This document shows, in pieces, positions 14,705-47,191 of a DNA stretch of 64,000 nt; the first letter of the stretch is position 1; every line of letters begins with the position of its first letter. The position numbers and the translations under genes are program-made. The notes below the pieces were generated by a model. It did no database searches and was not told the DNA's origin. It was given only the letters and a program-made list of their open reading frames with translations. Source of the DNA: a virus; IMG/VR virus record IMGVR_UViG_3300031417_000380; one strand, 5' to 3'.

Positions 14705-15406
14705 CTAGATTTTACTAGTAAGTACCGCTGCGAGCATTTCGGCCACCTGAAGCTGTTCAAACAGTTCCTCCTGCCGCTTCCCTAACTGCTCCATCCACTG
14801 AGGATTGAACGTCTTAAAGTTATGCTGCTCTTTAAGAAGATCAGCATAAACGAGGAGTGATTCAGCCGCGTTGATGTAAAGCGCAAGCGCGGCTGCCCCG
14901 TCATCCACGAAGACCAGATCGCGACGATCAGCGAGGAGGGCCGTAGCGTTAGACAGCCCCGGGCTCAGTGAAGCGTCTTCGGGAAGACTCCAAAGGCCTA
15001 GGCTCTCGATAAGAACCTGGTAGTGGCTCTGGACGAGCGCTTGGCTCACGGTGAGCTTCTCAACGGCCACAGCGTAATGATTGAACGCTTGATCAGCGTG
15101 GTCCCAGTAAGCTAACGCACGCCGAAGCTTGCCGTCTTTCAGATGCTTGAGTGCTGGAGCCGTAGCACGAACAAACTCCCCACGCAAAGCTTTGAGCTCC
15201 GGCAGCTTCCGTGCGAGATCTTTAAGCTCGTGCTGAAGCTCAGAAGTCGAATAGCCTCGCAAAGCGTCGTAGCCAATTTTGAAGTTGCGAAAATCTCCGT
15301 CTGCCGGCCAAGGACGCTCAAGGCGAGCTGTCACCGTGTACGCTGATTCGAGTGCTACCGCGTACTGTACGAGAGCCTTTACCGGAGGCGCTTCCTCGCG
15401 TATCAC
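14705..15406 (-). CDS. Family A paralog (start corrected from 15697)
   Basis: ALVQSHYQ ... DRRDLVFVDDGAAALALYI ... LFEQLQVAEML; GAGAGGG RBS before GTG. Confidence 0.8.
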   Translation of the reverse strand: MIREEAPPVKALVQYAVALESAYTVTARLERPWPADGDFRNFKIGYDALRGYSTSELQHELKDLARKLPELKALRGEFVRATAPALKHLKDGKLRRALAYWDHADQAFNHYAVAVEKLTVSQALVQSHYQVLIESLGLWSLPEDASLSPGLSNATALLADRRDLVFVDDGAAALALYINAAESLLVYADLLKEQHNFKTFNPQWMEQLGKRQEELFEQLQVAEMLAAVLTSKI

Positions 15407-15416
15407 AATAGCCCTC

Positions 15417-15797
15417 TCAGACTGACTCGAGCATCTCAAGCCCGTAGTTCTGGCCGCGCTTCGCAACCTGCCAGACGCCGGTGACTCGCCCTGCCTTGAT
15501 TGTTGCATGGCGGAGCATGGAGTCCACAGAAGAGACAAAGAGCGGATAGTGGATGTCGGTGGCGATGTCTCGATAGATAAAGACGACTGAGCTTCGCCCA
15601 CGGGACGAATGTACGAGTTCGAGGGTAGCCTCAAACGGATCGTTCGGTCGCCAGTCGATCTCTGCGCTGGGATACACGTAGCTAGCGAGGACCACATGCT
15701 TAAGTCTCGGCGTGTCTGTCGAGCTACCTTCTGCTCTGTCCCAGTAGGTGATGACCTTCTCGTACGGCGCTTCCTTGAGATTGTTCTTCTTAACCAT
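15417..15797 (-). CDS. Phage-type hypothetical protein
   Basis: WRPNDPFEATL..RGRSS..F..YPLF..KRGQNYG motif pattern that I associate with actinophage hypothetical proteins. Confidence 0.75.
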   Translation of the reverse strand: MVKKNNLKEAPYEKVITYWDRAEGSSTDTPRLKHVVLASYVYPSAEIDWRPNDPFEATLELVHSSRGRSSVVFIYRDIATDIHYPLFVSSVDSMLRHATIKAGRVTGVWQVAKRGQNYGLEMLESV

Positions 15798-16599
15798 GCG
15801 AGGCTCCTCCTGAAGTCTGGCTTGTAGTTACGGTATCACGAACCGGTGACTCTTCGGCACCCAGTTCGTGGAGAAGCACAGCCGCTTCAAGCTGTGCAGC
15901 AAGCTTCATCCGTTCTTCGTGAAGCGGGAGAGCAGCGAACGCCTCACTCTCGGTCGGAGCAACGGCGAGCAGATTCGCGAAGAACCGATCCACTATCTCC
16001 AGATAGGCCTCCAGCTTCGTGGCAGATAGCTCATCGAAAACGATGTCCCTCGCCTGAAGAAGAGGCTCCATGCGACGAGCGAACTCGTGCTCCATCTTCG
16101 GCCAACTAGCGCCGTGCCCCGGCCAGAAGCAACCGGCCTCTCTTGCGACCAGCTCCTGGTGAGCCTGAAGAAGCACATGTGTCGGAGTCACCGCAGCGTA
16201 GGCGACTACCGCTGTCTCGAACGCAGTCTCCAGCTCAGCAAAGCGAGGATCAAAATCCGCAGCCTCATCCGGCAGAAGCAGCTTCTTAACCACGTACCGC
16301 ATTGCATCAATCCCTCGGCGGAGGAGCTCATAGATTTCATCGCGAGATTCGAGCGAGTCAGAAAATCTCGGGTAACGGGCATGCTTGCTGACTAGCTGAT
16401 TAGCTGTGCCGAGTTCACGCAGTAGTTCAGCAGCTTTTTTATTGTGGAAAGCTCGCTCTCCCACGTTCGGCGAAGAGTCTATAGATGATCGAAGATTGTA
16501 GTGAGCGTCCATAAAGTACGCTAAAGCTTTACTCCACAACTGGGCAGGCTTCGGATCGAGTATCCAGTGGTTCATTCTGTTAAGCAAGGTATCAGTCAC
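15790..16599 (-). CDS. Family A paralog
   Basis: TPTHVLLQAHQE ... QARDIVFDELSATKLEAYLE. Confidence 0.85.
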   Translation of the reverse strand: MTDTLLNRMNHWILDPKPAQLWSKALAYFMDAHYNLRSSIDSSPNVGERAFHNKKAAELLRELGTANQLVSKHARYPRFSDSLESRDEIYELLRRGIDAMRYVVKKLLLPDEAADFDPRFAELETAFETAVVAYAAVTPTHVLLQAHQELVAREAGCFWPGHGASWPKMEHEFARRMEPLLQARDIVFDELSATKLEAYLEIVDRFFANLLAVAPTESEAFAALPLHEERMKLAAQLEAAVLLHELGAEESPVRDTVTTSQTSGGASHG

Positions 16600-17362
16600 C
16601 GACTGCACCCTCCACGAGCGCACTAGCCTCGATCTGATCGAGAAGCGTGCTGAGTTCGGCGAGCTTGCTGATCCGTCGCTGTTCTTCCTCGCTCGTGGGC
16701 CCGTCCGCGTAAGTCACCAGTTTACGATACGGCTCCACGGTGTAGAGCAACCGTGCCTGGTCTACGTAAGCGAACACCGCCTCCACGCCGTAGACGAAGC
16801 AGCCATCACGTCGCTCCTTCATGGCCTCGTAGATCGTCTGAGCCTCTTCGTAGATGAACTGAGCATCTCCGCTCGTGCTAAAGCTCTGACGCAGCTTTCC
16901 GGAGGACACCTGCTTGAGCTTCTGGATGTGCTGCTGGACAAGGAGCACCGTCGGTGTGAGCGTGGCGCAGATACGTTCGATCTCATCGGTATGCCTCGAA
17001 GAGACTTCGAGATCCTCCTCAGCGTCTACAATCTCTCCGGTAAACGTTAGGAACGCACGAACAGCTGAGTTAGCCTTGCGGAGCGAAGCCACGATTTCGC
17101 CACGGTTCTGGTACAGTTCGTCTGTCACTCTGCGAGCCGTGTCGTTCACGCGGAACACAGCTCCTACAGCAACGTTGGCGCGCTTAACTGAAGCCCTGGC
17201 GTCCTCCTGAAGCTCGGCCTTAAGTCGGCGTCGCTCTAGCGGAACGTGACCGCAGATAGTGCCGTCGTAGTCAAAGTACGTTTGAAGCTGCTCAATGAAG
17301 CCATAGGCTACCGCAACAGCCGTCGAAAGAGGCGTGGTTTCAACCTCAACGAAGTGCGACAT
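16592..17362 (-). CDS. Family A paralog
   Basis: TPTVLLVQQHIQ ... ERRDGCFVYGVEAVFAYV; AAGGAG RBS. Confidence 0.85.
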   Translation of the reverse strand: MSHFVEVETTPLSTAVAVAYGFIEQLQTYFDYDGTICGHVPLERRRLKAELQEDARASVKRANVAVGAVFRVNDTARRVTDELYQNRGEIVASLRKANSAVRAFLTFTGEIVDAEEDLEVSSRHTDEIERICATLTPTVLLVQQHIQKLKQVSSGKLRQSFSTSGDAQFIYEEAQTIYEAMKERRDGCFVYGVEAVFAYVDQARLLYTVEPYRKLVTYADGPTSEEEQRRISKLAELSTLLDQIEASALVEGAVGD

Positions 17363-17532
17363 GAGCACGGCTCCTTACGCCGAATCTGGGATAACTCAAC
17401 GCTATCACATCGAACGCAGCCTGTCACCGGGTGGCCCATTCGCTAGACAGCCGATGGCAAGGGTCAAGTAGCTGAACTGTATGACCTGTCGCAAGAACAT
17501 GGAAAAACTGAGAGAACGGCTGCTACAGTTTT

Positions 17533-18294
17533 CTAGACAGGAAGAAGCCCCGCCGAAGCCAGGATGATTCCCGTGTCAAGCTCATCGGTAAGTCGTTTGA
17601 GTTCGTCAGCATGACTTTCGTGCACGCTAGCTCGGTAACCGACTTGAAGAGCGTACGCCACGAATCGCGCTAGCTCCGTGCTAAAGAGCTCTTCGAAAAC
17701 TACGATGTAGTTCTTATAGTCCTCGAGCTCACCTCGCTCGAAGCACTGGTCACGGGCTTCCGAAAGTGGGGTGTAGAACTCGTCCGGATAGACGAGGGTC
17801 GCGCCAGCATTCTGCTCGACGAAAGTCTCGGAGAGTAGTCTGTCCGGACCAGCGCGAACAGCCGCAACGAAGTGCGCGTGAACAGCGCGCTGAAGCGGGC
17901 TGACGCTACCCATAGCCTTTTCGAAACGTCGTAGCTTCGCCGCTAACTGTTTGAACTCATCACGCAGTAACTCAAAGGTGCCCTTGGCCGCGCTGACATA
18001 CTTAATCTCGAAGCACCAGGCGCGCGCGATCTCGATAAACTCAGGTCCGAAGCTCACAAGTGCGTCGAAACGCTTCTCAGGACGAACCTCAACGTTGACC
18101 TGATCGAGGAGCCGTACGTAGCTGAGCTCTGAATGAGCCGAGACTTTAGGCCCAACGCTGTCAAGGCGCACCATCGGGAACTGAGTAAGATTTACTGTGT
18201 CGGTAAGACTGTTTAGTGCTTTCTCTAGACTCCGTAGGCGGCGCATAAGTGGTGACTCAAGCTGTAGCTTGATGTGGATAATCGGCTGGCTCAT
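17533..18294 (-). CDS. Family A paralog
   Basis: SPLQRAVHAHF ... FYTPLSEARDQCFERGELEDYKNYI. Confidence 0.85.
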   Translation of the reverse strand: MSQPIIHIKLQLESPLMRRLRSLEKALNSLTDTVNLTQFPMVRLDSVGPKVSAHSELSYVRLLDQVNVEVRPEKRFDALVSFGPEFIEIARAWCFEIKYVSAAKGTFELLRDEFKQLAAKLRRFEKAMGSVSPLQRAVHAHFVAAVRAGPDRLLSETFVEQNAGATLVYPDEFYTPLSEARDQCFERGELEDYKNYIVVFEELFSTELARFVAYALQVGYRASVHESHADELKRLTDELDTGIILASAGLLPV

Positions 18295-18331: not shown

Positions 18332-19117
18332 TCATGCTAGCAGCTCAGGGTCAAGCGAACAAACGACCAGCTTATCATCGAGCGCTGCAAAGCGCTGGCG
18401 GATCTGGTCTTCACGCTCAGGGAGCTCCTGCAAGATCTTCGGGCGCACAGAGTTGGTCTCTCGTAGTCGCTCTGACTCCTCGTAGTACGCCACAAAGCTC
18501 GAAGCCGAGCCGGTTTCAAAGTACGCGTTACGCTGATCGACGAGCTCTCTAAGCGTCGCACGAACTGTGATATAGCGATCTGACAAGGCCTGGAGCTCAT
18601 CCGCACCAGTTAGCTTTACGGTCTCAGGTTCATAAAGCATGACAAAGTGCTCAATGTGCTCTTGCAGAAGGTGATGACTCAAAGTCAGTGGCGCAACACT
18701 CGCCTGAAGCGCTCGCCACGCATCCATGAGTCGTTCAACCTGAGTCTGAGCATGTGTGGCAGCATCTTCGCCAAACCACTCGTGGAACCCGCTTGTCGTC
18801 GCTTCACAAAGACTGCGGACGCTCTCATCGACAGCCGCTTCTTTGAGGTTCATGAGTCGCTGAAGCGTCGCCGAGGGAGTGGTGTCTTTAGGAAATAGCT
18901 CGTAGCGAAGCTTGGGAACAAGCCGATCAAAGACTAATTCTGCTTCGGGTGCAGCGAGCTTAAGCCCGCGCTGCGAAATCTCCTTTGTTAGACCGCCGGG
19001 GCTAAACGTAACGGGCTCCGGGAGAGAAGGGAAGATCTCTTCAGCAGTCGCCATAAACGCGAAGGCTAGAAATACCGGCTTGGGATAACGATCTTTTGTT
19101 GGGATGGAATACTTCAC
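18332..19117 (-). CDS. Family A paralog
   Basis: TLSHHLLQEHI ... DQRNAYFETGSASSFVAYY. Confidence 0.85.
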   Translation of the reverse strand: MKYSIPTKDRYPKPVFLAFAFMATAEEIFPSLPEPVTFSPGGLTKEISQRGLKLAAPEAELVFDRLVPKLRYELFPKDTTPSATLQRLMNLKEAAVDESVRSLCEATTSGFHEWFGEDAATHAQTQVERLMDAWRALQASVAPLTLSHHLLQEHIEHFVMLYEPETVKLTGADELQALSDRYITVRATLRELVDQRNAYFETGSASSFVAYYEESERLRETNSVRPKILQELPEREDQIRQRFAALDDKLVVCSLDPELLA

Positions 19118-20181
19118 TCTGTAATCTCCTCAACCAGAACGGCCGCGATAAGCCGATCGTAGTGCTCTTCCACCTTTACTAGAAGCCCACTTCCGTAAAC
19201 GTTGATCTCCGTACCGAGCCCGATCGAAGCAACCCGCTTAGCGAGATTCTCTGGTGAAAGTGCATCGACCGCATCCTCGAAGCGCTCATGAGTGGGCCGG
19301 TTGAAATATGCGGTACGGGTTCGAAGAGCATCAGCAAAGAGAGCGTCAGCAAAAATGCTCTGATCGATCCCCGAGACGTTCAGGCTGATCTGTGCGTACG
19401 CTCGAGTCGCAAGCTGTTCGTGGTCTACGAGCATGAGGTACTTCTTAGTGGTGCGCTTAAGCACGGATCGGTCGTGCTCGATAGACGCGAGGAAGCTGTC
19501 TTCAAACTTCTCAGCAAGCTCAGTGTTCACTGTGCCGGTGGCTTCGAGTTCAAAAGATCGAAGCCCCTCTAGAGCCTCGGAGAGGAGACTCATGCCTTCA
19601 TCAAAGTTCTGGAAAGCCTGAGTCACTCGCTCTGACTTAAAGCGTGCTTTGCCGTTAACCAGAATGTGGTTGTAGAACGGGTCAATGATTTGACTAGCGT
19701 CCCTCTGCAGCGAGATCATTTTTCGTCTGTCGAACGACTCTTCAAACGGATCGAGGATCTCCATGATACGAGCGTTAAAGCTAGAGTTTAGATCGCGAAG
19801 ACTCCCCAGGGACTGTTCCGGAATAGCAACATCGAGAGAACCGAGTTCAAAGGAGAGCTCCGCCATCGATGCCAAGCGATTATGCAACGTTCGCCAGCGC
19901 AGCATAAGGGTCGAGGTTAGAACAGACTGACTCCAGCTGCAGCCGATGGACCGTAACGCGATGAGCGTTTCGTCTGGGCTGAACTGATCGACGTAACTAT
20001 CAAGTGCTGGATTGACCGTCATGCCTCTTGCTGCTTCAGCTGCCTCTACGAGGCGGGCAACAACTTCGCCTCGCAGTCCAGGGTCGTAGCCTCCGCGAGC
20101 ATGAGCCCCAATGAAGGCGCTAGCCGCTTCAGACACCGCTGTAAGCACCCCATTGAGGGTAAGGCTTTCGCTGGTACGCAC
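19114..20181 (-). CDS. Family A paralog with an extra ~100-aa N-terminal segment
   Basis: LRTRTAYFNRPTHERFEDAV ... YDRLIAAVLV; AGGAG RBS. Confidence 0.82.
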   Translation of the reverse strand: MRTSESLTLNGVLTAVSEAASAFIGAHARGGYDPGLRGEVVARLVEAAEAARGMTVNPALDSYVDQFSPDETLIALRSIGCSWSQSVLTSTLMLRWRTLHNRLASMAELSFELGSLDVAIPEQSLGSLRDLNSSFNARIMEILDPFEESFDRRKMISLQRDASQIIDPFYNHILVNGKARFKSERVTQAFQNFDEGMSLLSEALEGLRSFELEATGTVNTELAEKFEDSFLASIEHDRSVLKRTTKKYLMLVDHEQLATRAYAQISLNVSGIDQSIFADALFADALRTRTAYFNRPTHERFEDAVDALSPENLAKRVASIGLGTEINVYGSGLLVKVEEHYDRLIAAVLVEEITE

Positions 20182-20289: not shown

Positions 20290-20988
20290 TTACTCAGTAA
20301 CGATGCGTAGCATGGAGGCAACAGAAAGCTTGTCGTAGAGATCGCAAAGCTCAAGATACGCCGGATCAAGTCGGTAGTCTGATGAGAAGCCGAGATTCGC
20401 CACCTCCGACTGACCAAAGACATGTTCTGGATCAAAGGCCTCAGCACAGCGTTGAAGTTGCTTCGCTGTCGGCTCCTTGAAGTACTTAGATCGAGCTCGA
20501 TGTGCTTTGGAGAGCAAGTCATGCTGGAGATTGTCCGACGTAGACTCATGCCGAAGCAAGAACTCATCGATCTCTACCTCCATCGAGATCATGGTGAGGT
20601 AGTGCTGATCAATCCGGTCTAGATTGTCGAGAGTTCTCAGGGCAGCTTTTCGATGCTTCAGCATCTGACGGCTTTTCGGAGCTGCTTCGTACACACCGTA
20701 GTAGGTCGCAAGAAAGGCTGCGAAGCTGTCAGCTAGCTCCACGTAGTGCTTTCTTAAGTGCTTACGTTGGTGGAAAGCTTGAGTTAAGAGCTCATCGATC
20801 GGCCCTTCGCTCCAGCCAAGAGGAAGACACTGTAGTAGGGCTATAGCGCTTTCGGCGAAAGCGTTACGTTGAGGCTTAGCCTCGTGGCTTAGCCCCTTCG
20901 CTCTCATCAGCTTCTGGATAGCACTACGCTGTGCGATCAACGCTTGAACGAGCTCCTGCACTCCGACCTCGTCCTGGTACGACTCCAT
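20290..20988 (-). CDS. Family A paralog
   Basis: HRARSKYFKEPTAKQLQRC ... YDKLSVASML. Confidence 0.82.
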   Translation of the reverse strand: MESYQDEVGVQELVQALIAQRSAIQKLMRAKGLSHEAKPQRNAFAESAIALLQCLPLGWSEGPIDELLTQAFHQRKHLRKHYVELADSFAAFLATYYGVYEAAPKSRQMLKHRKAALRTLDNLDRIDQHYLTMISMEVEIDEFLLRHESTSDNLQHDLLSKAHRARSKYFKEPTAKQLQRCAEAFDPEHVFGQSEVANLGFSSDYRLDPAYLELCDLYDKLSVASMLRIVTE

Positions 20989-21628: not shown

Positions 21629-22354
21629 TTAGCTTTCGATCACCGAGAGAAGTGTCTGTACCTCAAGCTGCTCCCAGAAGTACTCTAAAGTCGGCTCGAT
21701 TCGACTTGCACTTACTCGATTTCCCATAGCACGTTGATTGTAGCGTCGATAGAGCTGGCTCTCGACGAGAGTCTGAGCGTGATCTCGGTATGACTCAAGT
21801 GCGGTAAGTTCGGAGTGACGAAAGTACTGAGCATGAGCTTCACGAAGAGGCGCGAACGCAGCTTTACCCGCCCGCTTAGGAAAGAACGAACCGTAAACGA
21901 TGAGCATTTCGAGATGTCCTTGCATTGCTACGTGACTCGGTTTGAGCAAAGCTACGGAGTGCTTGAGCTTGGCCAAAGACTCAGGCATCATCTTTAGCGC
22001 GTACTCTTCAGTCGAAGTAGGAACGACACCGATTTCAGCGTACTCTGCCTCCACACGGTACTGAAGTTTCTCAGTCAATGTCTCAAGTTCACTGACCGTT
22101 CGTACGAGCTGCCAGAGAGTCGACGAGAACTCTTCCTCGGTGTCAAGCCGGTCGATGAAGTTGTAGATGTGGTGAAGATCGTCCTCTACTCGCCCGTAAA
22201 CCGCGTGAGGCTCGGCGTAATCAGCTTTCTCCACAACCTCAAAGAATGCGTTGACACGCTTGATCCAACGATTTAGATGCTCGCGAAGAAGCTTCTCCTG
22301 GGGAGCTACCACAGCCCAATCCGGCGGCGGATCACGCTCAATAAACTTAGGCAC
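21629..22354 (-). CDS. Family A paralog
   Basis: KPSHVAMQGHLE ... LREAHAQYFRHSELTALESY; TAGTGT 6 nt before GTG. Confidence 0.85.
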   Translation of the reverse strand: MPKFIERDPPPDWAVVAPQEKLLREHLNRWIKRVNAFFEVVEKADYAEPHAVYGRVEDDLHHIYNFIDRLDTEEEFSSTLWQLVRTVSELETLTEKLQYRVEAEYAEIGVVPTSTEEYALKMMPESLAKLKHSVALLKPSHVAMQGHLEMLIVYGSFFPKRAGKAAFAPLREAHAQYFRHSELTALESYRDHAQTLVESQLYRRYNQRAMGNRVSASRIEPTLEYFWEQLEVQTLLSVIES

Positions 22355-22855: not shown

Positions 22856-23551
22856 TCAGTCCACCATGCTGACGAGCTCAGCCACCTGAAGCTTCGAGAA
22901 CAGCTCAATGCGGAAGGCGGTGACCTCCTGGGCCTTGAGCGCGAGCTCCATGTGCTCCGAGTCAATCTTCAACTCAGTCACGAGCTCCTCGATTGGTTCG
23001 GCTGTAGCGATGTAGTCCGCAAGGTGAACGTTCGAAGGCTCTAGTACGTAATCGTCGCGCCAAGCCTTTAGCTCCGCGAGGTCGAACGCCGCTACCTTGT
23101 GCGCTACCGCGTAGAGCAAACAGTAGTGTTGCTGCATGAGAGCGGTGTTCTTATTCGCCTTCTCCGCAAGAGCTTCGAATCTTCTATAGGTCTCAAGAGC
23201 TTCCGAGACGGCGCTCTCAGCCGTCTTTCGGTGCCACTTTCCGGTCTCGGTAGCAACACCTGCGTTCAAGTTGCTACCGATTCGCCGAACAAGGGCCGAG
23301 ACGGGTGCTACCTGAGCTTTGAGATTACTAATCTGTTGGAGAGTGTTATTGACGCTTGCGTAGGTCAGGAAACCGGAGAGCTCAGACAGTTCTCGCTCGA
23401 TGGCTTCAACTAGCTCAGGAGCAGTGTCTGCGATGCCTCGCTCCTTAGGAAGGTTGCTGCGCACTAGGAGAGAGTAAGCAATGTTGAGCTTGCCGTGTAC
23501 CGCCTCGAGCTCGCAGTGCAGCAAGGATGCGAAGTCACGACTGGTGGTCAT
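22856..23551 (-). CDS. Family A paralog
   Basis: TALMQQHYC ... AWRDDYVLEPSNVHLADYI ... FSKLQVAELV. Confidence 0.85.
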   Translation of the reverse strand: MTTSRDFASLLHCELEAVHGKLNIAYSLLVRSNLPKERGIADTAPELVEAIERELSELSGFLTYASVNNTLQQISNLKAQVAPVSALVRRIGSNLNAGVATETGKWHRKTAESAVSEALETYRRFEALAEKANKNTALMQQHYCLLYAVAHKVAAFDLAELKAWRDDYVLEPSNVHLADYIATAEPIEELVTELKIDSEHMELALKAQEVTAFRIELFSKLQVAELVSMVD

Positions 23552-24282
23552 CTGATCTCTCCCATGAGTCCTGCGACCTCAAGCTCAGGTTCAAGTTCTT
23601 CACGCTTCTGGCGCAGGTGCTCAAAGAAGTCAGGTGCGTTTAGCCTGGCCTGGTACTCCTGGAAACGCTTATCCTGAACGAGCTCAGAGACATGCGTGAG
23701 ATAGGCGTTCATGCCATCAGCGGTGACTTCGCTAAAGAGCGCATCTCGAAGACTCACGAGCGTGGCAAAGTACCGGCCTCGCTCAAGATCGGCGTTCAAG
23801 ACCTGCTGCTCTTTTGCCTTGCGTTCAATCCGTGTCGTATCTCTACCGAAGGTAAGTTCGCCGCCGGTTCGAAGCACCGCCGTGTAGAGGAAGTGGCTTT
23901 GCAGTAACAGATGAACGCTCTCGAGCTCACTTACGATGAGTTGAAGCTCAGCGCAGTTCTGAGCAACCTCGTTCGACTGACGAAGCTGCACCGGATCGGT
24001 AAAACAGCCCTCCGCTGCGACGACAGCCTGCTGAACACGCGAGAGATCGGCCGTCAAGGAGTCGTTCCTTACGAAAGACTCAAGCTGTGGGTATTCAAGA
24101 AGGCCCTGAAGCGTCATGTCAAGTCGAGCTAGCGCGATAACGAGATCTTCAGATGGCCCGTCTATCGAAGTGCTAAACGAGGAGCGAGCGAGTGAGCGGT
24201 GTAGCTCAATCACAGATTTCAGCACAGCCTTTGCGCGACGAATCGGCGGCGGCTGAACCTCGGGGAACGAGTGACGCTTCAT
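23548..24282 (-). CDS. Family A paralog
   Basis: SVHLLLQSHF ... SLRDALFSEVTADGMNAYL. Confidence 0.85.
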   Translation of the reverse strand: MKRHSFPEVQPPPIRRAKAVLKSVIELHRSLARSSFSTSIDGPSEDLVIALARLDMTLQGLLEYPQLESFVRNDSLTADLSRVQQAVVAAEGCFTDPVQLRQSNEVAQNCAELQLIVSELESVHLLLQSHFLYTAVLRTGGELTFGRDTTRIERKAKEQQVLNADLERGRYFATLVSLRDALFSEVTADGMNAYLTHVSELVQDKRFQEYQARLNAPDFFEHLRQKREELEPELEVAGLMGEIR

Positions 24283-28759: not shown

Positions 28760-28930
28760 TCATACATCATCTTGCTTAGCGCGTAGCTCTTTTCGAGCAA
28801 CCCGGCGTTGACGCCACCAGCGAAACTCATCCACCGGCATCATAGCGAGCTGGCCGATGACAAAGCCACAAAGCTGAAAGAAATCCCACGGCCGGGAGGC
28901 GTCGGGCTGCCAGCGATCGAGCTTACTCAT
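28760..28930 (-). CDS. Small 56-aa ORF not in the ORF track
   Basis: Starts overlapping the upstream stop; MSKLDRWQPDASRPWDFFQLCGFVIGQLAMMPVDEFRWWRQRRVARKELRAKQDDV. Confidence 0.45.
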   Translation of the reverse strand: MSKLDRWQPDASRPWDFFQLCGFVIGQLAMMPVDEFRWWRQRRVARKELRAKQDDV

Positions 28931-35589: not shown

Positions 35590-35704
35590 CGTACTTCCCC
35601 TCGCTCGTGAGCTCAACTATCAGGTCAGTCGCCACTAACTTCTCAACTCAAGAAGAGTTCGGAACGCGCGAGCGGTGAAAAGTAATACATATAATTTAAC
35701 ATTA

Positions 35705-38010: not shown

Positions 38011-38036
38011 CACATCATCGTAACACGAACAGGGCT

Positions 38037-39123: not shown

Positions 39124-39483
39124 TTAACGCTTGAAGCCGTGAAGCGGAACAATAACTACAGAGTAGGAGTTAGGACCGTAACCTGAGTCACCAAACTGAA
39201 GCTGTAACCCCGATGATACAGGATAGCTCGTGGCCGGTCGTGCGAACTCAGCTTTAAACTTCACCAGCTCATCCGGATTAGCGATTGAGCGGCGAGTCAC
39301 CATAGATAGCCGGTAACCGTTGATCGGCGTCGGATCCGCAAGGATGCCACGAGCGTTACGCTCGGAGCCAGAGTGTGCAGTTAAAGTCAGACCGAACGGT
39401 CCGCTCCCGACGTTCTTCAACGTGATGTGAAGCAGGTTTGGATTCTCAGCATCAATCTCAGCTTTGACTAACTGCAAGCTCAT
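39124..39483 (-). CDS. Family C paralog (start corrected from 39522)
   Basis: ITLKNVGSGP ... LSMVTRRSIANPDE; GAGGG RBS. Confidence 0.82.
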   Translation of the reverse strand: MSLQLVKAEIDAENPNLLHITLKNVGSGPFGLTLTAHSGSERNARGILADPTPINGYRLSMVTRRSIANPDELVKFKAEFARPATSYPVSSGLQLQFGDSGYGPNSYSVVIVPLHGFKR

Positions 39484-39733
39484 GGTGCCCTCTTTCTCTC
39501 GACTCAATACGCGACGAGACATCCTACCGAGCGACCGACCCTCCGGCGTAACTCAGCAGCAAAGCATCGATACAGCAAGAGGCAAGACTGCTCCCCTACC
39601 GCGAACAGATACCACGGTGGGGGAGCGAGGCACTAAATCGTGCTAGAAATCAGTAGTCTTCCTCATTGCTCGTTCGTTTAATCCTCGTCAACCTGTCTTG
39701 CGTAGAGCAGCGGCACCGTGTACCATAAAGCCT

Positions 39734-40455: not shown

Positions 40456-40929
40456 TTACCGGCTGTTGGCTGAAAGCGCTCCAAGAAGCTCCTGCAACAA
40501 CTCTTCCTCAACAGTGCCAAAGACCGCAACAAACGCATCCCGAACGGCTGTGACGGTGACCGACTTCTCGAGTACGAGCTTCTTGGCGGACGGTGACGAG
40601 CCCGATGCAAGCAGCTTCCGGAAACTCGCCATATCCTCAGCCACCTCGGCCTCGGTGTAGACGCCGGCGAGGATCGTCCGCGCCGCGGTGTGCAGCGAAG
40701 CTAGCTCCACCGTCAACGGAGGCTTCTCCGGAGCCTGCGCCTCGGCCAGCTCACCGAGCACCGTAAGGATAGCACGAAGCTCATCCATAGCGTCTTCGCT
40801 GTGGCGACGCCAGTTATCGTTAGCAAGCGAGAGAGCTCGAGCCACGTTGTCCTGCACGTCTCGAGAGCGAGCCTCCTCGCGGAACTCTTGCTCAAGGTCG
40901 TCATCATCAAAGTCAGCGTCAAAGGTCAT
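40456..40929 (-). CDS. Helical hypothetical protein with acidic N-terminus
   Basis: TAGAAT 5 nt before ATG; GC3 bias. Confidence 0.75.
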   Translation of the reverse strand: MTFDADFDDDDLEQEFREEARSRDVQDNVARALSLANDNWRRHSEDAMDELRAILTVLGELAEAQAPEKPPLTVELASLHTAARTILAGVYTEAEVAEDMASFRKLLASGSSPSAKKLVLEKSVTVTAVRDAFVAVFGTVEEELLQELLGALSANSR

Positions 40930-40937: not shown

Positions 40938-41720
40938 CTACCGATCATCGTTGCTCGTGAACAGGATGCTCATAGCTCCCCCGGTGAGCACTGGAGCCAT
41001 GAGCGACTCCACAGCAAGCGAATCCAGAAGCTTCTCAGCTTTAGCTCGCCGGTCAGGGCTCTGCGAAACGTACGGCTTGTGCTCAGCCAGCGGCTCAAGC
41101 GGGTGCTCTGTAGCCATAAGACGCTCGGCGATGGTGACGTACCGCTCAAGGTTATCTTGGCTCCCGTCGAAGAAGAACTCATCCCGAGCGTCGAGTAACG
41201 GAGCGTAGAAAGCCTGGTTAAGCCTCTTGTAGTGAGCAGCAACCTCGAACCGATCGTCACCCTGAACCCAGTACTCGCTACCGAAGGAAGCCGCGTGAAG
41301 CTGAAGGCTGAGGTGTGTCGGCGTCAAAGCCGCAGCAGCTGAGTCGAGTCTGTTAAGCTGGATAGCGTAGGCTTCGGCTGGGAACGCCGTACAACCGATC
41401 TCCGCGGTAAGCCCCTTATTCTCAGCGAACTCCTGCACCGCCGCCAGCGTCGGGAGCAAACTCTGAAGCGAGCTAAACATGGCCTCCCGGTCCTTGAGAA
41501 TGTTCGCTGTAGCGTGCTCAGTGCTCACCGCCACGTAAACGTCACGAGCACGATTACGTAGCATGCAGAAAGCCTCCAACGTCTTAGGAGCCTCTTCCTC
41601 AAGCTTACTCAATAGCTTCCCCAGCTTCCCCGAAGCCGAGTACTGTTTCGCACGAAGATCAAGCTCATTACAGAGATAGCGAATATCTTCCACCAGGCCC
41701 GGCATCTTAGCTCTCGTCAT
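40938..41720 (-). CDS. Family A paralog
   Basis: TPTHLSLQLHA ... FYAPLLDARDEFFFDGSQDNLERYV. Confidence 0.87.
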   Translation of the reverse strand: MTRAKMPGLVEDIRYLCNELDLRAKQYSASGKLGKLLSKLEEEAPKTLEAFCMLRNRARDVYVAVSTEHATANILKDREAMFSSLQSLLPTLAAVQEFAENKGLTAEIGCTAFPAEAYAIQLNRLDSAAAALTPTHLSLQLHAASFGSEYWVQGDDRFEVAAHYKRLNQAFYAPLLDARDEFFFDGSQDNLERYVTIAERLMATEHPLEPLAEHKPYVSQSPDRRAKAEKLLDSLAVESLMAPVLTGGAMSILFTSNDDR

Positions 41721-42456
41721 GGCCCGCCTCCGTAAGACTGAGCATGAGCTCATCGCTCACAAGCTGGTCCTCTAGCTTCGTGATCGCCTCGAGCTGCTCA
41801 GGAGTTCGGTAAGCTCGTTCGTACGGGACGCCGTCCACCGACGGAGGTGGAGTGTTCTCGAAACGCTCGGCGACGGCAAGATACTTCCTCAATGACTCCG
41901 CCGTCGAGTCCTCGAAGAACACATCACGCGCCGCCGCCAGCGGGTAATAGAAAGCTCTCTCCGAATCCTCGGTAGCGAGAACCTCACGAGTCAGAACGGC
42001 CGGTGTCTCGAGCTCGTAAGCCTCGTGAAGCTTGAGATAGGAGGCCTGCACTCGGCGATGGACCGGCGTCATGCTGCGTACGTCTCGTCGGATCCGATCT
42101 AGGACCTCACGCTCATCCTCAGTTGAGAAAACCAGATCATCGAACTCCTCAAGAATCCCACGTTCATCAAGCTCCTGAAAGAGGATCGCAGTCGTGGTCA
42201 GGAGCTCGCTGATCGAATCCATGACCTCATCGCTCTTGAGGAGTGACTTCACCGGATCGTAGTAGTCGATCTGAGCTCTAATCCGATTCGAGCGGTTGAG
42301 AAGCTCCGTAACATCCACGAAGTGCTCAGGGTAGGTCTCGCAGAGAGCATCGTACAGTTCACGATACCACTGTCGAAGAGTGGAGAAGACCGGTTCTAGA
42401 GTGCTCTGCATACTAAGGAGCGTCCGGAGCTGCGGAGGGTAGCTCTCGAAAATCAT
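41707..42456 (-). CDS. Family A paralog
   Basis: TPVHRRVQASY ... FYYPLAAARDVFFEDST ... LVSDELM. Confidence 0.88.
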   Translation of the reverse strand: MIFESYPPQLRTLLSMQSTLEPVFSTLRQWYRELYDALCETYPEHFVDVTELLNRSNRIRAQIDYYDPVKSLLKSDEVMDSISELLTTTAILFQELDERGILEEFDDLVFSTEDEREVLDRIRRDVRSMTPVHRRVQASYLKLHEAYELETPAVLTREVLATEDSERAFYYPLAAARDVFFEDSTAESLRKYLAVAERFENTPPPSVDGVPYERAYRTPEQLEAITKLEDQLVSDELMLSLTEAGHDES

Positions 42457-43202
42457 CGCGCACCCTCCAGAAGCCCGAGCATGAGCTCGTCTTTAATCAG
42501 CTCATCCTCGAGCTCCGCAGAGGCTGCCAGTTGCTCAGGAGTTCGCTGGATGCGCACGTAAGCGATTCCACGTATCGACGGCGGAAGCAGCTGAGAGAGC
42601 CGTTCGGACGTAGCGAGATACTCAGCGAGTACGGCGGCTGATGGAGCCTCGAAGAACATGTCTCGGGCATCGGTCAGTGGAGTATAAAACTTCGCCTCTG
42701 TCGCCTCAGTTAGGCGAACATCCGGGGCAGTGAACAACGGGATCGAAGTACGACAGTCAGTAATACGATCAGCGTAGTGTAGCTGTACACGCCGATGGAT
42801 AGGGGTTAGTCTACTCACTGTCTCACGCACTCGCGCAAGCTTCTGACGCTCATCTTCCACAGAGAACACCATATTATCGAGCTCGCCAAGAAGCCCCATT
42901 TTTCCTAGCTCCTTGAACGCTGTCTCCATAGCTGAAAGAAGACCGTTGAAAGATTGCACCGTAGCCTCACCGTTGCTGATCAAGAACACCGTTGGATCGT
43001 CTTGATCCATTATCTTAGCGTGAACGCTACCGTTTACGACGGTAACGCTCTGTTGAACGTTCTCGAAATGCTCCGGATAAGACTCGCAGAGCATCGTGTA
43101 GAGCTGCGGATGCCACCGCTCAATCGTAGAGGTAACCGCGGCTATCTTATTCTGTAACTCAAGCATAATCCGGGTAGCCGGCGGATAGGTTGTGTCAGTC
43201 AT
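42453..43202 (-). CDS. Family A paralog
   Basis: TPIHRRVQLHY ... FYTPLTDARDMFFEAPS ... LIKDELM. Confidence 0.88.
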   Translation of the reverse strand: MTDTTYPPATRIMLELQNKIAAVTSTIERWHPQLYTMLCESYPEHFENVQQSVTVVNGSVHAKIMDQDDPTVFLISNGEATVQSFNGLLSAMETAFKELGKMGLLGELDNMVFSVEDERQKLARVRETVSRLTPIHRRVQLHYADRITDCRTSIPLFTAPDVRLTEATEAKFYTPLTDARDMFFEAPSAAVLAEYLATSERLSQLLPPSIRGIAYVRIQRTPEQLAASAELEDELIKDELMLGLLEGAR

Positions 43203-43930
43203 CTCTCAGCCTCCAAGAGCTCAAACATGAGCTCGTCGCGCACAAGCTCGGCCTCCACAGCTTCAGCACGTCGTGCCGCTTCGTCAAAGCGCTCTGCAGT
43301 TACGTCGACGTTCATTAAGAGAGGATGCTCCTTGCCAGCAAGCTCTTCAGCCGTCGCCAAATAATCACGGAGCTTCGCAACAGACGTATCTGCGAAGAAC
43401 GCATCCCGCGCCTTAGCCAGCGGAGAGTAGAACAAGCGATTTACAGTGTCGCAGATTTCTACGGTAGGCGTTAAAGCTCGCGGTCCGTAGCCATAGACCT
43501 GACTCAGGCTCGTCAGATGCAGCTGCACACGGCGATGAACCGGCGTCAGTTGAGCCACCCGTGAACGGATACTCTTGAGCTTGACCAACTCCTCAGAGAT
43601 CGGATAAGCCAAGTCACTGAGCTCCTCCGTCAAGTCTTCACGAGCGAAGAGCGGCTCCATCGCCAGCAACATGGCCTTCGTAGAGGCTATCTGTTCCTCT
43701 CCATGCTCGATAAGCGAGCGAGCAGCATCATCAAAGTACAGCCAATGCTCGGCTAACTTATGTGCTGCTTGGCTTTGCGAAAGCTTTACCAGTTGCTCAT
43801 CAAACAATTTATCCGGCGTAGCATCAAGTACCTCGCACCGCTTAACAAACCGTCTTGCCTGAAGATTGGCCTGACCGCTCACCGCAATGAACTCTCTCAG
43901 AAGAGTTGGGTACTGAAGCTCCTTAATCAC
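43199..43930 (-). CDS. Family A paralog (start corrected from 44014)
   Basis: TPVHRRVQLHL ... FYSPLAKARDAFFADTS ... LVRDELMFELL; GGAGG RBS. Confidence 0.88.
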   Translation of the reverse strand: MIKELQYPTLLREFIAVSGQANLQARRFVKRCEVLDATPDKLFDEQLVKLSQSQAAHKLAEHWLYFDDAARSLIEHGEEQIASTKAMLLAMEPLFAREDLTEELSDLAYPISEELVKLKSIRSRVAQLTPVHRRVQLHLTSLSQVYGYGPRALTPTVEICDTVNRLFYSPLAKARDAFFADTSVAKLRDYLATAEELAGKEHPLLMNVDVTAERFDEAARRAEAVEAELVRDELMFELLEAER

Positions 43931-44657
43931 GATCGGCCTCCAGAAGCTCAAACATGAGCTCATCGCGCACGAGATCAGCGTAGATCTCAGCCGCCTGCTC
44001 AACGACTTGCTCACTCCGCTTCACGTGGACACCGTCGAGGTCTCTAGCCAAGGGATGCTCAAGCTCAAGCAAATTATCCGTCGCCGAGAGGTAGCGGTTG
44101 AGCGTTTCTAGCGTAGGCTGCTCAAAGAACGCATCCCGCGCCTCCGTCAACGGACGGTAGAACGACCAGGTAACAGTGGTCCAGTAGCCGTTGTTCTCGT
44201 GCGACCGCTCTCCAAAGACGTACTCACCGACAAGCAGGGAGAGATGGCGCTGCATTCTTACGTGGACATAGGTCATCATGCTCACCCGAGAGCTAATGAA
44301 CGCAAGCTTCTTCAACTCGACCTCTGTCGAGAACCGCAGGCTCGCCAGCTCAGGGTGCAAATCAGCCTGAGCGAAGATCGGCTCCATCGCGCACAGGAGA
44401 TCTTCAAGCACAGCGATCATCTCATCGAAGTTCTCCATGAGCGACCGAGCAGCGTCATCCTGAGCAACCCACGACCCGTTTGTGTTCATCTCGCCGCGCA
44501 CATGGATATACCGTCGCAGCTGCTTATCGAACTCAACCGGGACCGCGAACCCGAACTGGTTGTGACGCCGCAGCATCCGAGTAGCGCTCGACTGCACCGT
44601 CGCTTGCACCTCGAGTAGCTCCCTCAACGGCGCCGGATAGTGAAGGTCATCGGTCAC
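43923..44657 (-). CDS. Family A paralog
   Basis: TYVHVRMQRHL ... FYRPLTEARDAFFEQPT ... LVRDELMFELL. Confidence 0.88.
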   Translation of the reverse strand: MTDDLHYPAPLRELLEVQATVQSSATRMLRRHNQFGFAVPVEFDKQLRRYIHVRGEMNTNGSWVAQDDAARSLMENFDEMIAVLEDLLCAMEPIFAQADLHPELASLRFSTEVELKKLAFISSRVSMMTYVHVRMQRHLSLLVGEYVFGERSHENNGYWTTVTWSFYRPLTEARDAFFEQPTLETLNRYLSATDNLLELEHPLARDLDGVHVKRSEQVVEQAAEIYADLVRDELMFELLEADRD

Positions 44658-44753: not shown

Positions 44754-45518
44754 TCAGCGCTTACTGTCTAGAAGCTCAAACACGAGTTCGTCACACACAA
44801 GCTCCGCATAAAGCTCAGTCGCTTGTCCAGCAGCCCAGGCGTCTCGCTTCACGTAGACACCATCGAGTTCTTTAGCTAGCGGATGCTCAAGCCCCAAAAG
44901 AGCATCCGCCGTCGCGAGGTAGAGATTGAGCATCGGTCGCGTCGGCTCTTCGAAGAACGCATCCCGCGCCTTCGCCAGAGGCCTGTAGAACGAGCGGTTC
45001 AGGTCTTTCCACTGTTCACTCTTCTCATGACTGTTCAAAACCACCACGTACTCGCTAAAGCTCAAGACGAGATGACGCTGCATCCGCACGTGTATCGAAG
45101 TCATGGCGCTCGCCTGAGAACGAATCGCTTCGAGCTTCACCAACTCTGTATCTGTCTGGAAGCTCTGTCCAGCAAGGACCACATCGAGCTCCGGCTGAGC
45201 AAAGATCGGCTCCATAGAGCGCAACAGCCTCTCCAACGTGGAGATCATCTCGTCGCTATCCATAAGCTCTTCGACGGCGTTACCCAGCGGATACCGTTGC
45301 CCACCCCACTTCGCGTTATGCTCACCTCGAACAGCGATAAAACGTTGAGACTGCTCATCGAAGTCAGAAAAACGTCGAGACTGCTCATCGAACTCAGAAG
45401 TGATCGTAAGTCTAAGCTCATTCATGCGGCGGCGCGTACGAGAGCTTTTCGTCTGTGCTATCGCCTGTACCTCGCCCAGCCGATTCATATCCGGCGGGTA
45501 GAGAAAGTCATCCTTCAC
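44754..45518 (-). CDS. Family A paralog with internal 10-aa duplication
   Basis: TSIHVRMQRHL ... FYRPLAKARDAFFEEPT ... LVCDELVFELL. Confidence 0.88.
   Translation of the reverse strand: MKDDFLYPPDMNRLGEVQAIAQTKSSRTRRRMNELRLTITSEFDEQSRRFSDFDEQSQRFIAVRGEHNAKWGGQRYPLGNAVEELMDSDEMISTLERLLRSMEPIFAQPELDVVLAGQSFQTDTELVKLEAIRSQASAMTSIHVRMQRHLVLSFSEYVVVLNSHEKSEQWKDLNRSFYRPLAKARDAFFEEPTRPMLNLYLATADALLGLEHPLAKELDGVYVKRDAWAAGQATELYAELVCDELVFELLDSKR
45339..45398. repeat. 30-bp tandem duplication inside a family A gene
   Basis: AAAACGTYGAGACTGCTCATCGAASTCAGA x2, 28/30 identical. Confidence 0.85.
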
Positions 45519-45588: not shown

Positions 45589-45693
45589 ACGTGGTCGCTA
45601 CGGCCGCAGGCGACAGACTCACAGTTGCTCACCGCTCACACGACACGTCATGTGGGCAAGGCGAATAGAGACTTAGACAGCCGTAGAGCGAAA
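45589..45693. repeat. Dispersed ~105-bp intergenic element (copy)
   Basis: Aligns with 40332-40436. Confidence 0.6.
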
Positions 45694-45719
45694 ATGTCTA
45701 CACCGGTTTGAGAGTGGTC

Positions 45720-46463
45720 TCAATCGGCCAACAACGCCGCCATGAGCGAAGCCACCGCAAGCTGATCGAACGCTGCCGCCGCTCGATCAGTCTGAGAAGG
45801 ACTCCAGCGAGGCCCCGGCTCAAGTCTCAAGAACTGTGCAAGAGGATTCTCAGGAGCGTTCAATCGATGAGCGATGGCCACGTACTGCTCAAGATACTCC
45901 GACGACGGCTCTAGGAAGAAACGATCACGGTACTCAAACAGAGGCGCGTAAAACTCCTCAATCGGTCGATTGGCCGCCAGCTTCTCGGCCGGAGAAGAGC
46001 CCACCGCGGTGAAACGGTACTCATGATAGACCGACCAGACATGCGTCTGCATAGCAGTGTGAGCAACCGTCCAACCGGCCACCGCCTGCTCGACAGATGT
46101 GAGCCGGTTCTCGTAGCCTTCGAACGGATTGCTTCCCCAACGCTGCTCAGTGCTCAGACTCTTCCGCTTCGTAAACGTCTCCACAAGCCTGAGCATCTCG
46201 ACGAAGCTTCGCAGATCGAAGAGAAGCTTCGGCCGAGCAATCAAGTTCTCAACAGCGGCGTCCCGAACAAGAGCCTGGCGACAAAGATTCATCGCCTCGA
46301 TGAGCCTTCCGTACTCAGCGCGGGTCATAGTACCTGAGTCCAGGAACGACTGAAAGATCGCCGGTCTCTCCCAGAGGGCCTCATCGTGAGCCTCGAGAGC
46401 ATCACACAGTTCAAGCAGATCGCGCACCTGCGGCGCCATCACCGACGGATAGGTCATCGTCAA
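45720..46463 (-). CDS. Family A paralog
   Basis: TVAHTAMQTHV ... FYAPLFEYRDRFFLEPSSEYLEQYV. Confidence 0.88.
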   Translation of the reverse strand: MTMTYPSVMAPQVRDLLELCDALEAHDEALWERPAIFQSFLDSGTMTRAEYGRLIEAMNLCRQALVRDAAVENLIARPKLLFDLRSFVEMLRLVETFTKRKSLSTEQRWGSNPFEGYENRLTSVEQAVAGWTVAHTAMQTHVWSVYHEYRFTAVGSSPAEKLAANRPIEEFYAPLFEYRDRFFLEPSSEYLEQYVAIAHRLNAPENPLAQFLRLEPGPRWSPSQTDRAAAAFDQLAVASLMAALLAD

Positions 46464-47191
46464 ACCTCCAACAGGCGAAGCGAAAGCTCATCGGTGATCA
46501 GCTCAATGAGCAAACCGTCCGCACGCTCGACAGACTTCTCATACCGCCGAGCAGGAGGGGCGTCAAGATCATCGTAATCGGCCATCGGATGCGGTCGCTC
46601 AGCCAGCTTGCCCGCCGCCTCGATGTAAAGCTCTAGAGCCGCCCCCGTCGGCGTCTCGAAGAACCGATCACGAGCTTCCGCCAGCGGCTCGTAGAAAGCA
46701 TCCAGCTCACGCCGATGCTTGAGCATGAGCGCCGGCGAGCCGAACACGTACTCAGCCGTCGCCGCCGTCAGGTGCAACTGCACTCGCCGATGTACCTGCG
46801 ACACGGTACTCAAGTCAATGGCCAGTGACTCAAGATGATCGCCCAGACCGTCCGTAGCGAACATGGTCTGAGAGGCGTATTGTCTCGGCTCTAACCGGCG
46901 AATGCGCTCTTGAGCTACACCCATGGCCTCCAAAAGATAGGTAAGCCTAGCCAAGGCCTCCGGCCCCTGTTCAATGAATGAGCCGACCACATCCCTATTC
47001 AGGATACGACGAGGAAGACTATCCAGCTCTAGCCGGTGTGCATCGAACAACGCGAACTTGTCCGGAAGCTCACGCTGCAGCTCACCGTAAAGCCCTGAGC
47101 GAAGGCTCATGAAACGCTCCGCCGGGATGACCAACGCTCTGCTCACCGCAAGCAAGGTTTCCACAGGGAGAGGATACAAGGCGGTGATCAC
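46460..47191 (-). CDS. Family A paralog (origin-proximal)
   Basis: SQVHRRVQLHL ... FYEPLAEARDRFFETPTGAALELYI ... LITDELS; TAGGAT 6 nt before GTG. Confidence 0.88.
   Translation of the reverse strand: MITALYPLPVETLLAVSRALVIPAERFMSLRSGLYGELQRELPDKFALFDAHRLELDSLPRRILNRDVVGSFIEQGPEALARLTYLLEAMGVAQERIRRLEPRQYASQTMFATDGLGDHLESLAIDLSTVSQVHRRVQLHLTAATAEYVFGSPALMLKHRRELDAFYEPLAEARDRFFETPTGAALELYIEAAGKLAERPHPMADYDDLDAPPARRYEKSVERADGLLIELITDELSLRLLEV

Follow-up and report, generated by a model that had tools for sequence, protein, structure and literature searches.

A 34-gene array of one highly diverged, predicted two-bundle protein family on a giant plasmid-like actinobacterial element

We analyzed a 64,000-nt stretch of DNA (IMG/VR record IMGVR_UViG_3300031417_000380; hereafter the window), which belongs to a 740,336-bp contig (ENA ERZ27247408, k141_1142885), and found that positions 14705-47191 hold exactly 34 full-length minus-strand genes of a single protein family, here called family A, over ~32.5 kb (Table 1; copies are named by their coordinates). 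An all-against-all BLASTP comparison (E < 1e-3) placed 28 of the 82 minus-strand open reading frames (ORFs) of at least 90 amino acids (aa) in one component, and two rounds of hidden Markov model (HMM) searching added five more members. The product of 20290-20988 matched the C-terminus of that of 19114-20181 by BLASTP (27% identity over 77 aa, E = 2e-5); we regard it as marginal and the most divergent member because its leave-one-out HMM retrieved it solely with filters off. Leave-one-out HMMs retrieved 33 of the 34 copies at E values from 3.5e-7 to 1.7e-46. A six-frame, stop-to-stop scan of the window with the family HMM gave 34 matches, all on the minus strand and nearly full length, with no fragments, no pseudogenes, and no copies outside 14705-47191. 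An earlier note on this DNA, made from the sequence alone, had proposed that 34 intact minus-strand ORFs form one family; BLASTP, HMM searches, and the six-frame scan agree in joining them, with 20290-20988 as the marginal case.

The same note put most lengths at 210-275 aa, a range that needs widening: as longest ORFs the copies span 210-355 aa, and several starts are over-extended (those of 43199, 40938, 32573, 31849, 15790, and 14705, judged by gene calls and orthologs). In 14705-15697, the true start is probably internal, since the family domain begins near residue 40. Mean column identity across the family alignment is 17%, and the median isoelectric point is 5.2. None of the 34 copies has a membrane-like segment (highest 19-residue Kyte-Doolittle mean 1.71), as had been described. 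We found no fused or longer family A forms (623-2000 aa), which is weak evidence. The 355-aa product of 19114-20181, with its N-terminal extension, has orthologs of 355/356 aa in P0031 (93% identity) and P0137 (48%).

Consecutive family A genes overlap or abut at 14 of 33 junctions, where a Shine-Dalgarno motif usually lies inside the upstream gene; the remaining gaps measure 16-1110 nt. At 9 of 38 starts the motif TANNNT precedes the start codon by 5-8 nt, as against 5.1% of random ATG/GTG codons (p = 1e-4). Genes located after a gap often carry it, and one example reads TAGGAT-N6-GTG with a TTGCG-type -35 element. Leaderless mRNAs are common in Actinobacteria, and a TANNNT this near the start matches their layout. 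The block-leading genes thus appear to have actinobacterial leaderless-type promoters, with the genes that follow translationally coupled. Given the junction overlaps and the promoters after gaps, the array is a set of short operons, in line with the single genes and coupled operons that the first reading had described. A generic sigma-70 and terminator scan of the window found no enrichment over shuffles, and Rfam and tRNA scans gave no match. One leaf-litter metatranscriptome yielded five contigs of 151-218 nt, at 39815-40784 and 46560-46899; this is too little for us to claim that the array is transcribed, and uncovered parts carry no information. Two of these five contigs map to 39815-40172, which contains no convincing gene (a 105-aa ORF at 39948-40265 only) and no Rfam match.

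We performed AlphaFold2 on copy 43923-44657 with the 34 copies as alignment. The model (predicted local distance difference test [pLDDT] 92.4, predicted template-modelling score 0.87) consists of two tandem four-helix bundles, residues 1-128 and 129-244. Its last helix (residues 216-243, pLDDT ~94-98) completes the C-terminal bundle as helix four, and four-helix-bundle chains align to the model over 129-242. The residues of this helix that are conserved family-wide are the leucines L229, L234, and L238, and the acidic DEL motif is limited to one subclade. A terminal helix that is predicted to be packed in the bundle argues against a free docking helix; with its leucines conserved and DEL confined, the suggestion that the proteins dock on a partner through a terminal acidic amphipathic helix is weakened. 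Family A proteins are soluble, acidic, and ~240 aa long, with a predicted fold of two tandem four-helix bundles.

To describe conservation, we numbered residues by copy 43923-44657 and compared 227 non-identical family members. The best-conserved residues all lie within the C-half: Y189 (95%), H138 (94%), L229 (90%), R174 (89%), F178 (87%), L170 (85%), Q136 (72%), D175 (70%), and H132 (68%). L170, F178, L186, L229, and L234 are packing residues of the C-terminal bundle, and H138, R174, and Y189, joined in most members by Q136, D175, and H132, make up a near-invariant polar and aromatic set. The N-half is the more variable, as first noticed, with paralog identity of 12.8% vs 21.1% in the C-half and column entropy of 3.41 vs 2.96 bits; identity to orthologs on a related contig, L001, is 41% vs 55%. 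The C-terminal signature reported earlier survives in part. Its literal motifs occur in few copies (FY.PL..AR in 8/34, [TS]..H..[LM]Q.H[FL] in 6/34, and DEL[ML]..LL in 4/34), whereas the underlying positions are conserved across the 227 members. A profile comparison detected no relation between the N-half and the C-half. The C-bundle is thus the constant module and the N-bundle the variable one, almost unalignable between paralogs and conserved between orthologs.

No library that we searched gave a convincing match, so the absence of a known domain stands. Foldseek with the family A model found nothing better than E 0.8 in PDB, and the best BFVD match had E 0.24. ESM Atlas matches had a template-modelling score < 0.4, and a feature-based search gave no usable match. 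An exhaustive VIA structure search returned half-length matches to generic bundles only (Z ≤ 9.5, an uninformative range for helical proteins). The halves of the model each matched generic four-helix bundles at Z 6.6-9.5, examples being PedB (2ip6), Avd (4dwl), Xcc0516 (2gsc), and the helical bimodular sensor McpS (2yfa), and no chain clearly matched both halves. McpS aligned at Z 6.6 with an rmsd of 15.2 A over 180 residues, and McpZ (8f7n) had a Foldseek E value of 1.5; helical bimodular sensors are extracytoplasmic domains anchored by flanking transmembrane helices, unlike family A, which lacks a membrane segment. Across Pfam, NCBIfam, PHROGs, PADLOC, and a PDB sequence profile, no family recurred among the 34 copies. 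The best PDB profile match (E 0.021) was to generic helical proteins, and Pfam, NCBIfam, and the PDB profile revealed no similarity to helix-turn-helix (HTH), catalytic, or DNA-binding families. Matches to PADLOC JetB (E 0.0048), NCBIfam HigA (E 0.0032), and Pfam CATRA-C (E 0.0048) arose in one of the 34 copies each, and we took them as chance because no family recurs among members. We also rejected membership of the HEPN superfamily, in whose four-helix bundle an Rx4-6H motif begins the final helix. In family A, H138 sits in the first helix of the C-bundle with no conserved arginine 5-7 residues before it, and R134, spaced 3 before H138, is present in one subclade only.

Between paralogs, DNA identity does not exceed 77%, over stretches no longer than 149 nt, so the copies are old. 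Terminal branches of a FastTree phylogeny measure 0.3-3 substitutions per site. The tree has many long branches, and we relied on it for the ortholog pairs starred on it and for a two-clade split only. Adjacent copies tend to be sisters, as tandem duplication would give. The window copies pair 1:1 and in the same order with those of L001 and interleave with them on the tree; arrays on an 828-kb and a 698-kb contig form the second clade. The presence of a separate ortholog for every copy in a sister element fits a non-redundant repertoire.

We next compared substitution rates (nonsynonymous, dN; synonymous, dS). Against a close relative, L002, dN/dS is 0.15-0.45, so the copies are not evolving neutrally. 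Between the window and L001, LigA is 95% identical in amino acids (dN 0.025, dS 0.88), the T2SSE ATPase 91% (dN 0.048, dS 0.62), and a neighbouring 907-aa protein 80% (dN 0.143, dS 0.68); family A orthologs are 30-59% identical (dN 0.30-0.97, with dS at 0.9-2.8, near saturation). Family A is therefore constrained yet evolving 10-30 times faster at the protein level than the neighbouring enzymes. When the two halves were compared, N-half dN exceeded C-half dN in 8 of the 9 L001 pairs with values for both. Copies 42453 and 44754 have no ortholog in L002, which carries one additional copy. One window-L002 ortholog is 77% identical (dS 0.50) between neighbours at 94-98% (dS 0.04-0.2), and another has a dS of 0.38 in its C-half and 0.086 in its N-half; these mosaic sites concern 43923-44657 and 41707-42456. 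Such mosaic divergence suggests that element lineages have exchanged alleles, or recombined, inside the array.

When we searched 1.84 billion representatives by HMM with filters off, we found 198 clusters (74 at E ≤ 1e-10), the strongest of which were mostly the window's own copies or their orthologs. Related arrays lie on an 828-kb contig (merged L010, L009, and L005, plus L011), with at least 41 copies in 36 kb and 2 upstream; a 698-kb contig, L007, with at least 17; an 87-kb contig, L013, with 17; a 41-kb contig, L014, with 5; L002 (109 kb), with 13 in the part read; and L001 (26.6 kb), with 10. By tblastn, 72,556 plasmid and 50,697 phage records contained no match. A scan of IMG/VR with one pattern from a 13-member subclade and a scan of GTDB species genomes with a single family A protein also gave no match, both weak negatives that reach close relatives only. 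The stretch occurs in public metagenomes of phyllosphere, leaf litter, plants, and soil (11 studies), and we take the carrier to be a giant plasmid-like element of leaf-dwelling actinobacteria. Family A is almost certainly a real, ancient, and selectively maintained family specific to a clade of such giant elements. Giant extrachromosomal elements of environmental actinobacteria are, to our knowledge, almost unstudied, and a literature search on them returned nothing relevant. Family A is among the largest investments of these elements: it takes up ~4.4% of the 740-kb element, and one relative has at least 43 copies.

Two further observations concern the relatives and the runs. In the 698-kb relative, a Peptidase_M78 gene (ImmA/IrrE-like, E 1.9e-10) is embedded between family A copies, at 14601-15095 of L007. 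A run labelled as a single organism (X8, 186 million letters) covers most of 28100-48000 at a summed word depth of ~300-500, in hundreds of short contigs at 90-100% identity. Such a run may derive from a culture or enrichment that carries several element variants, and would then be a possible experimental source.

The array is bounded by an origin-like switch near 49-50 kb, where GC skew changes from -0.25 at 48-50 kb to +0.16 at 50-52 kb. Beyond it lie genes for the 907-aa protein, the T2SSE-type ATPase, LigA, a ParA/CpaE-like ATPase, a VirB4-like AAA_10 ATPase (closest to Nocardiopsis plasmid proteins, 35%), and TcpE. These conjugation-type genes and the likeness to Nocardiopsis plasmids fit a conjugative, plasmid-like actinobacterial element. 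The layout of large divergent gene, gap, small genes, and array recurs in L001 and L014. The 907-aa protein had been thought relaxase-like, an idea that Pfam does not support: it gave no Pfam relaxase or Replic_Relax match even at E ≤ 1, and its only Pfam match is a weak HTH at residues 625-656. Its C-terminal 600 aa are conserved at 59-76% in L001 and L014.

Interspersed with family A, and on the minus strand like all 34 copies, are genes of a second family, family C, and a gene for a 157-aa protein; Pfam and NCBIfam detected no significant family in the intervening ORFs of the array. Family C has eight small members of 110-295 aa, one of them a tandem double, encoded at the three places listed in Table 1 and at 8002-10585. 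Its invariant residues are P44, R74, R75, N79, P80, and E82, with the motif TRR[ST]xxNPxE. An AlphaFold2 model (pLDDT 87) has an N-terminal helix followed by an immunoglobulin (Ig)-like sandwich, a fold that weakly resembles PapD, adaptin-ear, MSP, and FlaG domains. A family C gene accompanies family A arrays in 7/7 loci examined; a complex prediction for copy 1 (46460-47191) with the neighbouring family C protein scored 0.01, which carries no weight either way. The 157-aa gene holds the same position in L001 (63%), L002, and L003 and has no known domain. Profile-profile comparison detected no mutual relation among families A and C, the 157-aa gene, and a further local family, B.

Tentatively, we take the 34 copies to be a repertoire of binding proteins that act inside the cell, each joining a variable to a constant module. 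Every N-bundle would recognize a different factor of the host or of a recipient cell, and a shared putative site in the C-bundle would carry out the same step in all copies, for example by binding a partner, ligand, or cofactor that they have in common; read so, the family would be the element's arsenal for counter-defence or host takeover. We favor this because a constant His/Arg/Tyr module is joined to a variable module that is paralog-specific and ortholog-conserved, because the proteins evolve rapidly, turn over at strain level, and are restricted to mobile giant elements, and because the genes share one orientation beside a replication/transfer control region. The earlier note had likewise suggested a diversified recognition repertoire on a common scaffold. 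Its scaffold, variable in N and constant in C, is borne out, and the 1:1 orthologs fit non-redundancy; the recognition role stays tentative.

Several observations weigh against the arsenal. No ortholog pair has dN/dS > 1, and 1:1 orthology with kept order fits a stable housekeeping role as well as an arms race. Pfam, NCBIfam, PHROGs, and PADLOC found no recognized anti-defence, toxin, or secretion-signal domain in the copies, and no copy is linked to any defence system. Transcription is barely documented by the five short metatranscriptome contigs, which may reflect DNA carry-over. The 828-kb relative has no conjugation or origin genes in the ~9 kb between its main array and its two upstream copies. 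Within the window, we identified no relaxase or oriT (Pfam on the 907-aa protein), so any analogy with a plasmid leading region rests on position and strand only. A more specific form of the proposal, in which 34 to more than 43 variable N-bundles and a constant C-bundle with a putative neutralizing His/Arg/Tyr site make up a new modular class of counter-defence or host-takeover proteins, is doubtful; the family C sandwich protein would possibly join in its common act.

Among the alternatives, the one that survives best, though we think it unlikely, is that a single machine encoded by the element uses the copies as specificity adaptors or as cargo. As adaptors, they would dock through the C-bundle on a type IV secretion system (T4SS) coupling ATPase, the T2SSE-type ATPase, a protease, or family C, and pick clients with the N-bundle; as cargo, they would themselves be moved into recipient cells. 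The constant/variable architecture would suit such a role, as would the T4SS-type genes within 16 kb and the presence in 7/7 loci of family C, which is weakly like the peptide-binding PapD, adaptin-ear, and MSP domains. However, the copies carry no known secretion signal, their C-terminal helix is modelled as packed rather than free, and nothing direct shows A-C binding. We also know of no precedent for at least 34 adaptors serving one machine.

When polar residues of a helical bundle are near-invariant, they usually belong to a functional site and not to the core. The C-bundle might accordingly be read as an enzyme or ligand site (H138, R174, Y189, Q136, D175, and H132), the N-bundle as a regulatory or oligomerization module, and the copies as isoenzymes, sensors, or regulators for the element itself. 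Stable 1:1 orthology and gene order across diverged elements, and a promoter for each block, would agree with this. We nevertheless judge it quite unlikely, as family A resembles no catalytic or DNA-binding family and has no HTH, and protein evolution 10-30 times faster than that of the neighbouring enzymes would be unusual for a housekeeping enzyme.

It is very unlikely that the genes confer poly-immunity to polymorphic toxins in the manner of the esaG/tsaI arrays at type VII secretion system (T7SS) loci. Family A shares with the esaG/DUF600 and tsaI arrays tandem strings of non-identical cytoplasmic paralogs, and its C-half aligns over 75 residues with the bacteriocin immunity protein PedB (2ip6), at a Z of 7.3 that for helical bundles lies in the noise. 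It is unrelated to them in family and fold, and none of the 34 copies matched a known immunity family in Pfam, NCBIfam, or PADLOC. The proteins, at ~240 aa and two domains, are larger than typical immunity proteins, and we found no polymorphic toxin, LXG/WXG, or T7SS gene among the flanking window ORFs scanned. The esaG arrays evolve through recombination between conserved blocks (PMC9484751), whereas family A is far more divergent and has no such blocks, with paralogs at most 77% identical over at most 149 nt. The family is also absent from the plasmids and phages searched and from the close-relative species-genome scans. Finally, that the copies are decaying or neutral duplicates is hardly credible: extreme divergence (mean column identity 17%) and the lack of a known domain would allow it, and against it stand 34/34 intact frames with no fragments, dN/dS of 0.15-0.45, orthologs kept in order across elements with near-saturated synonymous sites, conserved promoters and Shine-Dalgarno coupling, and a confident fold prediction from covariation among the copies. 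The remaining probability falls to an explanation not yet thought of.

With the arsenal as our tentative reading, family A can be set beside three known systems, of which the second and third are the closest analogies to that reading. It shares dozens of old, diverged tandem paralogs with the lineage-specific multigene families of giant viruses, jumbo phages, and giant mobile elements, and like them it devotes several percent of a genome (32.5/740 kb) to one small protein in one lineage; diverged paralogs, confinement to one lineage, and selection are all found here. Unlike those families, its two-bundle architecture is unmatched, and the window has conjugation-type genes rather than phage genes. 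The poxvirus Bcl-2-like immunomodulators (A46, A52, B14, K7, and N1) are many highly diverged duplicates of an all-helical scaffold that act non-redundantly in the host cell, each binding a different host defence protein (PMC2907574, PMC2494871). Family A may act in a similar way, but they serve as an analogy only, as we found no fold or sequence relation to family A; they number ~10 copies vs 34-43, and the hosts of family A are bacterial. Anti-defence islands of plasmid leading regions adjoin oriT opposite the relaxase, have their genes on one strand (the T-strand), and are mixtures of unrelated genes, including Acr, Ard, SOS inhibitors, methyltransferases, and SSB (PMC11541004). The family A array is likewise one-stranded and beside the transfer/replication control region of a conjugative-type element, but it is a single expanded family with no recognized anti-defence gene (Pfam, NCBIfam), and its promoters look like ordinary double-strand leaderless promoters, unlike the single-stranded DNA promoters of leading regions.

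The confident but unmatched architecture, the constant/variable split, the few near-invariant residues, the fast protein evolution, and orthologs that define 34 specificities make family A a tractable entry to element-host dealings. If the repertoire reading is true, the family would offer the anti-defence field a new protein scaffold, and if it acts in counter-defence it would be a bacterial-element counterpart, with an unseen fold, of the poxvirus Bcl-2-like or ANK/F-box repertoires. Should that reading be wrong, the presence of family A still identifies a clade of giant elements and helps to set its limits.

Table 1. Features of the family A array and its surroundings. E values are from leave-one-out HMMs; "Joined by" gives how each copy entered the family.
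Feature	Position	Strand	Length (aa)	Joined by	E value	Remarks
907-aa protein gene	50363..53086		907			
Origin-like region	47907..50362	.				cumulative GC-skew minimum; genes diverge outward
Family C gene heading array	47474..47854	-				family C HMM; AlphaFold2 pLDDT 87; N-helix + Ig-like beta-sandwich
Copy 1 promoter	directly upstream of 46460..47191	-				leaderless-type, TAGGAT-N6-GTG
Copy 1	46460..47191	-	243	BLASTP	1.3e-29	first gene after origin-like region; L001 ortholog 58%
Copy 2	45720..46463	-	247	BLASTP	9e-36	4-nt overlap with copy 1
Copy 3	44754..45518	-	254	BLASTP	1.5e-41	30-nt tandem duplication; no L002 ortholog
Copy 4	43923..44657	-	244	BLASTP	1.7e-46	modelled protein, pLDDT 92.4
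Copy 5	43199..44014	-	271 (longest ORF); 243 (gene call)	BLASTP	3.4e-39	
Copy 6	42453..43202	-	249	BLASTP	8.5e-44	no L002 ortholog
Copy 7	41707..42456	-	249	BLASTP	4.8e-39	
Copy 8	40938..41753	-	271 (longest ORF); 260 (gene call)	BLASTP	2.1e-40	
157-aa gene closing first block	40456..40929	-	157			conserved in L001-L003
Family C gene between blocks 1 and 2	39124..39522	-				family C HMM
Copy 9	37261..38013	-	250	BLASTP	5.9e-26	heads second block; L001 ortholog 49%
Copy 10	36489..37208	-	239	BLASTP	8.8e-29	
Copy 11	35705..36472	-	255	BLASTP	2.8e-33	L001 ortholog 59%
Copy 12	34858..35616	-	252	BLASTP	3.1e-16	
Copy 13	34039..34797	-	252	BLASTP	3e-41	TAAGAT-N6-ATG upstream
Copy 14	33309..34049	-	246	BLASTP	6.1e-31	
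Copy 15	32573..33364	-	263 (longest ORF)	BLASTP	6.5e-29	
Copy 16	31849..32613	-	254 (longest ORF)	BLASTP	1.9e-28	
Copy 17	30347..30979	-	210	HMM iteration 0	9.5e-12	shortest
Copy 18	29640..30299	-	219	HMM iteration	1.3e-14	
Copy 19	28923..29597	-	224	BLASTP	1.6e-11	
Copy 20	27831..28553	-	240	BLASTP	2.2e-17	TACCAT-N6-GTG upstream
Copy 21	27095..27829	-	244	BLASTP	3.9e-15	
Copy 22	26243..26953	-	236	BLASTP	5.9e-14	
Copy 23	25416..26243	-	275	BLASTP	4.8e-18	
Copy 24	24682..25419	-	245	BLASTP	4.1e-18	
Copy 25	23548..24282	-	244	BLASTP	2.3e-15	
Copy 26	22856..23551	-	231	BLASTP	5e-14	
Copy 27	21629..22354	-	241	BLASTP	4.6e-16	
Copy 28	20290..20988	-	232	BLASTP link to 19114-20181 only	1.9e-4 (filters off)	most divergent, marginal
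Copy 29	19114..20181	-	355	HMM iteration 1	3.5e-7	conserved ~100-aa N-terminal extension
Copy 30	18332..19117	-	261	BLASTP	2.8e-13	
Copy 31	17533..18294	-	253	BLASTP	5.8e-17	
Copy 32	16592..17368	-	258	HMM iteration	1.4e-15	
Copy 33	15790..16623	-	277 (longest ORF)	BLASTP	2.7e-20	
Copy 34	14705..15697	-	330 (longest ORF)	HMM iteration	6.3e-14	domain 40-327
Family C gene just past last family A copy	13708..14052	-				family C HMM

Beyond these features, family B consists of four paralogs of 188-275 aa at 5889-8009 and 10582-11370 of the window, and it was not found in the readable flanks of related loci. A 40-nt direct repeat (98% identical; 47370-47409 and 47868-47907) brackets the family C gene at the array head. 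Between blocks 1 and 2, a 118-aa ORF with no known domain lies on the opposite strand (38072-38428, plus) and is possibly a divergent regulator; L002 has a called gene at 8067-8423 that corresponds to it in size, relative orientation, and place. Within copy 44754-45518, positions 45339-45398 form a perfect-frame 30-nt tandem duplication with units 93% identical, and a metagenome contig from run X3 lacks one unit, so that this coding repeat is polymorphic by an indel.

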